Program-made: the position numbers
NCBI RefSeq assembly: GCF_013167455.1
Contig: NZ_CP038328.1
Origin: Escherichia coli O157:H7
GTDB lineage: Bacteria; Pseudomonadota; Gammaproteobacteria; Enterobacterales; Enterobacteriaceae
Reading direction: 5' to 3' (one strand)
Length of the DNA: 64,000 nucleotides
Shown here: positions 45,101-51,100 of the stretch, piece after piece
Numbering within the stretch: position 1 is the stretch's first letter
Layout: each line of letters begins with the position of its first letter

Positions 45101-48100
45101 TGATGATTTTCATCGTATACGCGCTGTATCTCTCTCTTCAGCCAGTCGTCGTGCTGCGCACGGGCACTGCGTTTATCCGGATGATGTCGCTGTTGCTGAC
45201 AATGGTAATACGTTGACGGGGCAATATGCAGTTCGCTGCATACCGGTCCGACCCCGTACTGCTCACGCAGCTTATCCAGCAGTGGCATCATTTTTTCCAG
45301 AGGCGGTCGAACTCCGCCTTCGCAAAATAAGCGGAAGCCTGGCGAAGGATATCGTTACTGCGGCGCAGTTCACGATTTTCACGTTCCAGCTCTTTCAGAC
45401 GCTGACGTTCAGCGCTGGTGAGCCCACCATCACCGCCCCCGGTATCCCGCTCATGCTGGCGAACCCAGACACGCAGAGTCTCCGGCGTACAGCCAATCTT
45501 TGGGGCAATGGAACAAATTGCCGCCCACTGTGAGTCATATTCATCCTGACTTTCCAGAACCATACGAATCGCCCGCTGACGGACTTCGGGGGAAAAACGA
45601 GTATTTTTAGTCATCCTGTTTACCTCTTTCTCAGGGAGTTTAGTCTCCAGGATTTCCGGGGCGGTTCAACACGATGGCTGAGGCGATTACCTACCGCCAG
45701 AAATTCAACGAACGTGAGGTGATGCTCTTATGGCCTGACTTCATCGCCTACAACCTGAAAAGTGGCAAAAACGAAACGTTCCCCGCGCCTGCTTATGCGT
45801 GCGGCCTTCGTGCGTACATTGACCATGAGCAGGGCTGGCACAAATCGCTGTCCAACGTTCCGGTTAAAAATGTGCTTGGGATGTCGAGGCATGTGTTCTG
45901 GTCGTTGCAGGCCGAAGACAGTGATGCCAACAGCCTCAACAACAAAGAAATCACGACCATTATTCGTCGCAACGGGTTCCGCTTCTGGGGCAACCGCACA
46001 CCGGAAACGAACGCCTACATCTTTGAGGTGTATACCCGAACCGCACAGGTGCTGGCTGATTCAATTGCGGAAGCGCAGTTTGAAACCATCGACAGTCCAC
46101 TGACACCTGCGAACGTGAAGGATGTTATCAGTGCCATCAGGGCAAAACTGGATTCACTGGTTACTGCCGGGAAACTGATTGGCGCGGAGTGCTGGTATGA
46201 CATCGAGGATAACAGCACCACGAATTTACGTCAGGGGCGTGTGCGTATTCGCTACAAATATACGCCCGTTCCTCCGCTGGAAGACATGGAGCTTTACCAG
46301 TCGTTTACTGATGAATTCTTTGGTCCCGCATTTGCGGTGCTGGGAGGTGCCTGATGGCTGTACCAAAACATCTTCGCTTTTTTACGCTGTTTGTGGATGG
46401 TGAAAACGAAGTGGGTAAGGTGACGTCCGTCACCCTGCCTAAACTGACGCGCAAAACCGACAGCTACCGGGGTGGTGGCATGATGGGTGCGGTAAGTATT
46501 GACCTCGGCCTGGACGACTCCGCGCTTGATGCGAGCTTTGTCATGGGGGGCGCAGTTCGTGAGCTGTTCCTGAAGTATGGCGGCACGATTGACGGCACGC
46601 TACTGCGTTTTGCGGGGGAATACTACACCGATGATGAAAGCGACCTGTATGAAGTCGAAATGCGCGGACGTGTGACGGAAATTGATATGGGGGAAGCCAA
46701 ACAGGGCGAAGCCACATCACACACTTACGCCATTAAAAACACCTACTACAAGCTGAGTGTTAACGATCGCCCGTTGTGGGAGATTGACCTGCTGAACTTC
46801 ATTTACCGGAAGGACGGCAAGGACATTGTGCCCGATCGCATCCGTTCCGCGCTTGGGCTTGGCTGATAAGTAATATGCAGGCGGCGCAGTGCGTCGCCTC
46901 TGACTGAAAGGAGTTTCCTGATGAAAGAGACGAAAAACATCGATACCGAAAACACGGTAGTTACTGACACTGTGAAAGAAACCAGTGAGCGTGGTGTAAA
47001 ACTTACCCAACCAATTGAGCGAGGCGGCGAAAAAATCACGTATGTGGAGATCACCGGGGCTATTGAGCAGGCTGGATCTCTGCGAGATTTGTCGCTGTCT
47101 GATGTGCTGAATCTGAAAGCGGAATCCATGTTTACGCTGCTGTCACGCGTGACATCACCGCGACTGGATGAAGTGACGATCAAAAAAATGGCATCCCGTG
47201 ACTTTATTCAGTTATGTGTGGTTGCCGTAAATTTTTTGAGCGGTGCGGACTCTGGCGGGAAGAACGAACAGGCGACGGAAGCCTGATCACGGTTGTGTGC
47301 TTTGAGCACATAGAAGACTTTGTGGCAGATATTGCCGTTATTTTTAACTGGTCGCCCGCCGAAATCTTCATGATGACGCCCGGCGAAGTGGTTAGCTGGC
47401 GTGAGCGGGCGGCACTTCGCAGCGGGAATGCAGACAATGAAGACTCTTGATATCCGGGTCGCTTTCAGCGCCGTTGACAGGCTGACCCGACCTGCCGAAA
47501 ACGCACGCCGCCTGATGGGGCAGTTTGGTGACTCCATCCAGCGAACGCAGGGGGCGATCAAAAATCTCGAGCGTCAGGCGCGATCATTTGAGCGCGCCCG
47601 CGACGCTGTCAGTAAAGCGGATGCTGGCATCGTGAAAGCACGACGCCAGCTTAACGCCCTTAATCAGTTACAACGCACGGGTACAGTGCTCAGCGAAAAA
47701 CAACAAAAGCTGATGCAGCAGTTAAGCACCCGGCTTGAACGCCTGAATGAATCGCGCACACGGGAAATTCAGAAAATGAGGGAACTTGGCGGAGAGCTGA
47801 AACGCCACGGCATTTCCCTGACAGGCAGCGATAACACCATTCAGCAGGCCATCAGACGCACCGAACAATACAACAACCAGCTTGAACGCGAACGGCAGGC
47901 GCTTGCGCGTGTAACGCAGGCGCGTGAGCGGTATTCGCACGCGCAGGAAACCGCGGGAAAACTGAAAACAGGTGGTGCGCTGGCAATTGGTGCGGCAGCG
48001 GCGGGCGGCTATGCTGCCGGGCGTTTTTTGCAGCCTGCGATCGGGTTCGGCAAAGAGATGTCCCGCGTTCAGGCACTGACGCGAATCGACAAAAACAGCC

Positions 48101-51100
48101 CGCAGTTTAAGGCGCTGCGTGAGCAGGCGTTAAAACTTGCTGAAACACAGTTTACTGCGAGTGATGCCGCCAGTGGGCAGAGCTTTCTGGCAATGGCTGG
48201 TTTTACTCCGCAGGCCATTCAGGCCGCATTGCCCGGTGTTCTTAATATGGCGCTGGCAGGTGGCGTCGAACTCGGCGAGACGGCTGATATAGGCTCCAAT
48301 ATCCTCACACAGTTCAACCTGACAGCCGATCAAATGGACCGGGTGGGCGATACGCTGACAGCAGCATTTACCCGGACCAATACTGATTTACGCGCGCTGG
48401 GCGAAACCATGAAGTATACCGGTCCGGTTGCCGCAAAACTTGGTATCAGTCTTGAAGAAGCGGCGGCCATGGCCGGGATGCTTGCCAATAATGGTCTTCG
48501 CGGAAGCGATGCTGGCACGGCCATGCGCGCAAGTCTGTCCCGCCTTGCATCACCGCCAAAAGCTGCGGCTGATGCACTGAAAGAGCTGGGGGTGTCAGTT
48601 GCTGACGCCAGAGGCAAAATGCGCCCGATGGAGGATGTGCTGCTTGATCTCTATAAGGCGACACAAAAATACGGACAGGTGGACCAGGTCTCCTTCTTCA
48701 AGGACATCGCCGGAGAAGAGGCGTTCGTTGGTTTGCAGACGCTTGTTGCGGCGGCTGGTTCAGGAGAGCTGCAAAAACTGACCAGAGAATTGCAGGGGGC
48801 AAGGGGAGAGGCCGATCGCGTCGCAAAAGTAATGGCTGATAATCTTGATGGGGACCTGAAAAATCTCGACAGCGCATGGGAAGGTCTTCGTATTCGCATC
48901 AGTGATCTGGTTGACGGTCCGCTGCGTTCTGTCACGCAGTGGCTCACGCGGGTGCTTGAAAAAATCACCTCGCTGGCGCAGGCCCATCCGGTACTGACGC
49001 GCCAGCTACTGATAGCAGGCGGTGCGTTGCTGGCAATGACTGCAACGATTGGCTCGTTGTCGCTGGTTATTGGGGTGCTTTACGGGAAGCTGGCCACCCT
49101 GCGTCTTGGTTTTGACATTCTTACCCGGTCAATGAATGTCGTCAGGGTGTTACCTGCGCTATGGGGAATGGTGACGGGTTCCGTTTCTTTACTGGGAGGC
49201 GTTATCGGGGCGTTGTTCAGTCCGGTTGGTCTTATCGTGGCTGCGCTTGCCGGAGCTGCCGTTCTTATCTGGAAATACTGGGATCCTATCAGGGCTTTCT
49301 TTGCCGGGGTGTTCAGCGGGATTATGGAAAGGCTGACCCCGTTGCGCGACACCTTTGAACGGTTTGGCCCTGTTTTTGACGTAATCGGAAGCGGTTCAGC
49401 CAGGTGTTTAACTGGTTTAAATCGCTGCTGTCACCGATGGAGTCCAGCAAGGAAACGCTGGATAAATGTACCAGTGCTGGCGAGGTATTCGGTAACGTTC
49501 TTGGTGGTGCGTTACAGCTTGTTCTGACGCCTGCAAAAATGTTGCTGGATACGCTGGCGTGGATACTTGAAAAACTCGGTGTGCTTCCGGATGAAGCGGA
49601 AAGGGCGCGCAAGAAAATCGAAGACGCACAACGTGCGGCCATTCTTCAGGACAAGGTTGCTCTGTTTCAGGGAGACATTGCGAAAATCAATCCGCCGAAG
49701 TCTGCGGGAAATAGCAATGGCACCGGAGATGATAAACCCAAAGACAACAAACCTCTCACAGACAGCAATACCGGCACGCTACGCAGACTCAGCAAAATTG
49801 CTGATAACACAGGTAAGCTGGTTGATGAGACAAAAAAACGCATTGGCCCCGGCGATATTGTCTTTAAGAACCTGCCCCGCGCACTTGCTGTTCGTGGGGA
49901 GTGGCAGGAGCGGAAGATTGCGCAGGTCAGTAAGCCTGCCCCCGCAATTAATATCACACCCGTGGTCCCGGCTCCGCTGCCTCCGGCGCTGGTCCCTGTT
50001 GTTGCGGCCAGCTCCCGCCCGGTGGTGGAGGCCATACGATCGCCAGTGGCATCAGTTCCTGCAACTTCCCGTAACCGGGAGCCTGTTGCCTCCGGATTTG
50101 GCGGTGAAATTCATGTTCATCTGCATAACGTTGTTACGCAGAATCCCCGCGAACTGGCGAAACTGGTCGGCGAAATGGTCAGGGCAGAAATGGAACGGCG
50201 CGCCCGTGCCAGGCGTGGCAGTTTTTACGATAAAGATTGAGGAGTCATGGCCATGATGATGATCTACGGCATGTTTGTTTTTGAGCTGCGCACGTTGCCG
50301 CATCAGCAGTTACAGCAAAACAAAAGCTGGCGACATGTGAAAAATGAACGCGTTAACCGTTCAGCAAGCTGGCAGTATATCGGTGCAGGTGATGATCGCA
50401 TCGTTCTTTCTGGTGTTCTTTATCCTGAGATTACTGGTGGCGAAGTGTCGCTGTCGTTGTTGACCACGCAGGCATATACAGGACGTCCTTGGCCTTTGAT
50501 TGATGGCGTCGGGCAGATTTACGGCATGTATGTCCTGACCGGAACGAATACGACCCGCTCCGAGTTTGATCGCTACGGTAAGGCGAAAAAGATAGAATTT
50601 TCACTGACTCTTGAACGCTGTGATGAGGATTTGCGGGAGCGCCTGCAATCCTCATCGTTCAGCGATATGCTGTCCGGCTTCAAAGATAAGGTGACATCAT
50701 CCCTTAATAGCGCGGCCAGCTCAGTTAAGGGGCTGCTCTGATTTAACGTATGTCGCCAATTTCCTGATGAAGGTGACTGGCGACTTGCTGTTGTATGTCC
50801 TTCTCAGAAAATTGTTTTTGAATAACAAATAACAGGATTTTATAATCTCTTAACCTTATAACATGTGTGGTCTGAAATAATAATTAAGGAGATTATCGTG
50901 CTATCTTACTTAATGGCAATTCACTTTGTTTTATTTGGAAACTCTACTAATTTAAAAAACTTCTGGAAACATGAAGTAATTCGGCGGAAACGTATGGATA
51001 TCTGGAGGCTTTTAAGAGAGAAAAAGCAGCGTAACCGGAATTTCCTTTTCTGGTGGCGGTTGGCTAACGAAATGTATATTAATGGTAATAAATTACATAA

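Follow-up and report, generated by a model that had tools for sequence, protein, structure and literature searches.

A frameshifted tail tape measure gene in the defective P2-like prophage Sp13 of Escherichia coli O157:H7

A 64,000-nucleotide (nt) stretch of an Escherichia coli O157:H7 genome (RefSeq assembly GCF_013167455.1, contig NZ_CP038328.1; hereafter "the window") carries a phage tail tape measure gene whose coding region is divided between two long open reading frames (ORFs). Does this division reflect a mutation, a sequencing error, a gene naturally made of two parts, or a programmed change of reading frame? Our analysis indicates a true frameshift pseudogene, produced by neutral decay in an already tail-defective prophage and involving no functional mechanism (probability about 0.96). 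Positions 47437 to 50240 hold the P2 gpT-type tape measure gene of Sp13/CP-933T, a defective P2-like prophage located beside leuZ in typical O157:H7. The prophage is well studied, and the frameshift pseudogene is an ordinary one, known already and annotated as such in public records.

An ORF scan identified ORF1 (47401..49527, plus strand, 708 amino acids [aa]) and ORF2 (49404..50240, plus strand, 278 aa), both opening with GTG. The two ORFs differ in frame and share positions 49404-49527; over 148 nt (49380-49527) the two frames are open at once. This reproduces exactly the original prediction, made by a first reading of the same DNA, of a 708-aa and a 278-aa ORF in differing frames with an overlap around 49390-49530. 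Its placement of the gene start at 47401 is the only claim that we correct. GTG 47401 is merely the first in-frame start following a stop codon. The real start, ATG 47437, lies just inside the 3' end of the gpE' frame (47450); it agrees with the annotated start of all intact homologues and exhibits the same opening, ATGAAGACTCTT. No single uninterrupted full-length frame is present: the gene is 2804 base pairs (bp) long, not a multiple of three, and runs into a stop at 49527 after 652 native codons. ORF1 exhibits a high-scoring match to the PhageMin_Tail domain (PF10145, E-value = 7.6e-55, 186.3 bits for a cutoff of 33.2, residues 228-426). The position of the gene also fits the gpT type: it comes after the tube gene and the pair of frameshifting chaperones, and before gpU. 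Its parts are as follows.

47437..50240, plus strand: tape measure (gpT-like) pseudogene, 2804 bp (2808 bp when intact), 100% identical to ECs_2640 and EDL933_RS14220 and 96.1% identical to gp28 of phage 500465-2.
47437..49392, plus strand: native-frame 5' part, 652 codons, holding the PhageMin_Tail domain (alignment and domain search).
48139..48140, plus strand: in-frame 3-bp deletion, ancestral CTTGGCTCTGAA to CTTGCTGAA, changing Gly-Ser to Ala (alignment to intact copies).
49392..49395, plus strand: frame-breaking lesion, GC-GGGATC to GC-GGTTC, with one base lost (49392/49393) and an A-to-T change at 49395 (alignment, including 493/89).
49393..49527, plus strand: out-of-frame tail of ORF1, 44 missense codons followed by a TGA stop (ORF scan and translation).
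49404..50240, plus strand: ORF2, GTG start, 278 aa; the 3' part of the gene in its native frame, which is open from 49380 (ORF scan and translation).

The lesions were located against four intact reference copies, those of phages 500465-2, P88 and 503458 and that of the same prophage in the sorbitol-fermenting O157 strain 493/89. All four exhibit one ORF of 2808 bp (935 aa). The original prediction had proposed such an alignment, and had named naturally two-ORF homologues as the observation that would overturn it; instead, the alignment reveals only two gaps, one of 3 bp and one of 1 bp, and the single frame-breaking base loss falls at 49392/49393. A product starting at ATG 47437 would comprise 652 native codons and 44 wrong codons, up to the stop at 49527. 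Putting one G back yields a 934-aa ORF with no internal stop. More broadly, the tape measure region aligns with 13 phage records at 88.5-96.1% identity and 100% query coverage. The comparison with intact orthologues thus shows a specific one-base lesion and not a chance pattern of ORFs.

The nearest copies, those of 493/89 and of PV15-279, read GGGATC at the lesion, and the window allele with a plain G restored exhibits no exact match in any record searched. These observations suggest that GGGATC is the ancestral state and that the lesion is of the GA>T type instead of the loss of a plain G. The change from GGGATC to GGTTC, which abolishes an ancestral GATC (Dam) site, is accordingly most plausibly one complex GA>T event, not a simple homopolymer slip. 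Over 6.4 kb, the window differs from the 493/89 prophage by two substitutions and the two tape measure deletions only; the A-to-T change adjoining the lesion accounts for one of these substitutions.

The base loss lies within a short G run (GGG to GG), of the kind that is prone to miscalls on some platforms, and one may ask whether the real gene is intact and its interruption an error of sequencing or assembly. This is extremely unlikely. The exact 80-nt broken allele is found in 263 complete E. coli records, including Sakai, EDL933 and many strains that were assembled independently; the eight records listed among the 263 are O157:H7 or of unstated serotype. Moreover, the substitution adjoining the base loss does not fit a simple homopolymer miscount. 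We rejected sequencing error on these two grounds. The original prediction had named a single frame restored by resequencing as a refutation; with 263 independently assembled complete records sharing the allele, resequencing will not yield one. Among other matches sampled (from 1306 matching records), 32 of 32 span one extra base. Since the identical allele recurs in 263 records and the extra base is present in all the other sampled copies, the broken allele is a mutation fixed in a lineage, and neither a sequencing error nor a natural two-ORF design. As ORF1 and ORF2 are both still long open frames, one might suppose that this phage group normally makes two functional proteins from a naturally divided gene. 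Every phage copy and every non-O157:H7 copy examined is, on the contrary, one ORF, and ORF2 is still open because the lesion is young: the few differences from 493/89 over 6.4 kb, with one of two substitutions beside the lesion itself, indicate a recent frameshift. An informal inspection of the sequence revealed no good ribosome-binding-site spacing before GTG 49404. We consider a natural two-ORF gene exceedingly improbable, and rejected it given the intact single-ORF homologues.

A third alternative concerns recoding within the overlap, where a slippery-site scan identified one candidate.

49416..49422, plus strand: T_TTA_AAT heptamer in the ORF1 register, formed by native Phe-Lys codons, most likely a coincidence.

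Leaky or programmed -1 frameshifting at this site would yield a near-full-length protein with about 8 residues substituted, and the pseudogene would then be leaky instead of null. Nothing of substance weighs against a complete loss of function. The heptamer is of the canonical X_XXY_YYZ form in the ORF1 register within the 148-nt doubly open stretch, and, lying 24 nt past the lesion in the right register, it is compatible with trace read-through as far as sequence alone can tell. Against recoding, chance alone would place about 0.19 heptamers of this form in the 49 positions in register, if base composition is taken as uniform. The Phe-Lys codons are native ones, identical in the intact phage gene, and thus older than the lesion. 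The downstream 88 nt (49423-49510) fold no better than shuffled sequences (z = -1.04; 31 of 200 shuffles as good), and AAU is a poor slippery codon in the A site in E. coli. The two-frame layout is not conserved, all relatives examined having single ORFs. Lastly, a restored tape measure protein would find no sheath, baseplate or gpD partner. We therefore judged the heptamer coincidental, given its pre-existing codons, the lack of a supporting structure and the unconserved split, and rejected programmed frameshifting at 49416; recoding in either form is very unlikely. The programmed -1 frameshifts of tail assembly chaperones, those of P2 E/E+E' and lambda G/GT, occur in the chaperone gene. The same operon is present here, with the expected T_TTT_TTG at 47232, upstream of T; the break at 49392, in contrast, lies in the tape measure gene and is a mutation, not a conserved signal.

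The frameshift pseudogene belongs to a well-studied prophage. The 2840-bp region 47401-50240 is 100% identical in many E. coli O157:H7 chromosomes, those of Sakai and EDL933 included. In Sakai it lies within the "prophage Sp13, P2-like phage", integrated beside the tRNA gene leuZ. The complete Sp13 occupies about 42408-63813 of the window, the whole of which aligns collinearly with the reverse strand of Sakai between about 2.593 and 2.658 Mb. RefSeq annotates the gene as a pseudogene in Sakai (ECs_2640), and as "phage tail tape measure protein, frameshifted" in EDL933 (EDL933_RS14220). Both copies exhibit the same lesion in the same prophage at leuZ (CP-933T in EDL933). The window does not differ from these two strains in the gene itself; its extra insertion sequence (IS), an IS629, has eliminated what was left of gpD together with the 5' part of the sheath gene.

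Sp13 is the single P2-like prophage of Sakai, where it lacks most morphogenetic genes; its excision and replication nevertheless persist, and mitomycin C induces it (Asadulghani et al. 2009, PMC2669165). Sp13 is thus a live replicon with relic tail genes. Within the prophage, a P2 gpA-like replication gene has beside it partition genes of plasmid type, one stbA/ParM-like and the other its partner (about 53100-59200; Sakai ECs_2633-2635). This arrangement fits the published excision and replication of Sp13 despite the absence of virion genes.

The structural part of the prophage has been reduced by several IS elements, two of which border the tail genes of the window.

44359..45668, minus strand: full-length IS629/IS1203, 1310 bp, with a truncated IS30 on one side and the sheath remnant on the other (ORF scan and Sakai comparison).
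52047..53103, plus strand: partial IS629/IS1203-family copy, marking the deletion of fibre, baseplate, lysis and head genes (annotation and genome comparison).

The prophage of the sorbitol-fermenting strain 493/89 and that of PV15-279, a beta-glucuronidase-positive O157:H7 (PMC6256406), are the same prophage at the same site, and both retain the tail fibre, baseplate (V, W, J, I), lysis and head genes. In the publication on PV15-279 (PMC6256406) we found no mention of this prophage. In both strains gpD is likewise split by IS30, with a right junction identical in 493/89, PV15-279 and Sakai; the sequence across this junction is contiguous between Sakai and 493/89. As gpD was already split in these two strains, the prophage would have been tail-defective before the tape measure lesion arose. 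In Sakai, EDL933 and the window alike, the partial IS629/IS1203 takes the place of the whole segment between the first 15 tfa codons and the head genes, both included. The element at 44359-45668 replaces 1028 bp that Sakai has kept, namely the IS30 end, a fragment of gpD and the first 498 bp of the sheath gene. A search of 5,426 complete RefSeq E. coli genomes did not find the junction between this IS629 and the sheath gene, so the insertion is specific to this strain.

We propose the following order of events. IS30 would first have disrupted gpD and left the prophage tail-defective. In the lineage leading to typical O157:H7, the change from GGGATC to GGTTC, with its net loss of one base at 49392-49395, would then have broken the tape measure gene; in a prophage already unable to make tails, such a frameshift is neutral decay, selection having been relaxed. 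An unexpressed open frame, seen as the 278-aa ORF2, would be all that remains of the last 282 native codons; we infer ORF2 to be untranslated. The frameshift being recent, this frame is still open. In other O157 strains, IS629/IS1203 has repeatedly inactivated the tape measure gene. In PV15-279, its 5' end has been lost independently to another IS1203 (L006 11311-12577). An IS1203 insertion also splits the gene in strain 1613 (hit H14).

The remaining genes of the tail module lie on both sides of the pseudogene.

45668..46354, plus strand: tail sheath remnant, lacking the first 166 of 394 codons (domain search and Sakai comparison).
46354..46866, plus strand: tail tube gene (FII-like), intact (ORF scan and domain search).
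46921..47286, plus strand: tail assembly chaperone, a gpE-like ORF (ORF scan and annotation).
47232..47238, plus strand: T_TTT_TTG slippery heptamer, in register with gpE, where a programmed -1 shift into the E' frame is expected; intact (heptamer scan).
47295..47450, plus strand: E' extension frame, Pfam Phage_P2_GpE (domain search and RefSeq).
50253..50741, plus strand: gpU-like tail gene, intact (annotation and domain search).
51514..52047, minus strand: tail fibre assembly (tfa) remnant, lacking the first 15 codons (domain search and Sakai comparison).

The original prediction had described the sheath and tfa genes as truncated, and the comparison bears this out, with 166 codons gone from the start of the former and 15 from that of the latter. 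From these truncations and the split gene it had concluded that the tail module cannot produce functional tails. This was right but understated, since gpD is gone and the whole fibre, baseplate, lysis and head block of 493/89 and PV15-279 is missing here. RefSeq presents E' (47295-47450) as a separate 51-aa "GpE family" coding sequence, not as the product of a programmed frameshift. Between gpU and tfa, a gene resembling hexapeptide-repeat serine O-acetyltransferases (50898-51470, about 42% GC) is apparently a moron, conserved also in both 493/89 and PV15-279.

Among the relatives compared, the closest intact gene is that of 493/89 (WP_000853407.1), which shares the integration site, the IS30-disrupted gpD and 99.9% identity over 6.4 kb. 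It differs in being one 2808-bp ORF with GGGATC and an extra GCT, in a prophage that has kept its fibre, baseplate, lysis and head genes. The Peduoviridae phages 500465-2 (Gemsvirus), P88 and 503458 (Xuanwuvirus) exhibit full-length collinear genes at 89-96% nucleotide identity, corresponding to P2 gpT by function. They share with the window the gene order sheath, tube, E, E', T, U, and differ from it in having intact single 935-aa ORFs.

The analysis confirms the tail module of Sp13/CP-933T as a relic; no new biology follows from it, and it matters little. It does illustrate the stepwise decay of a prophage, with IS30 in gpD first and point lesions and IS629-mediated deletions later. It also provides a small lineage marker. 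The GGGATC-to-GGTTC change and the 3-bp deletion are present in the typical O157:H7 copies examined, and absent from the sorbitol-fermenting O157 (493/89) and the beta-glucuronidase-positive O157:H7 (PV15-279).

Elsewhere in the window, the segment 21216-23159 contains a single espR-like effector gene of 379 aa (ORF 21551-22690), compared with the tandem espR3 and espR4 of Sakai, and about 2 kb less DNA. Its mismatches are of the espR4 type to the left of about 22136-22185 and of the espR3 type to the right. This switch suggests that recombination between espR3 and espR4 may have generated a chimeric single copy.

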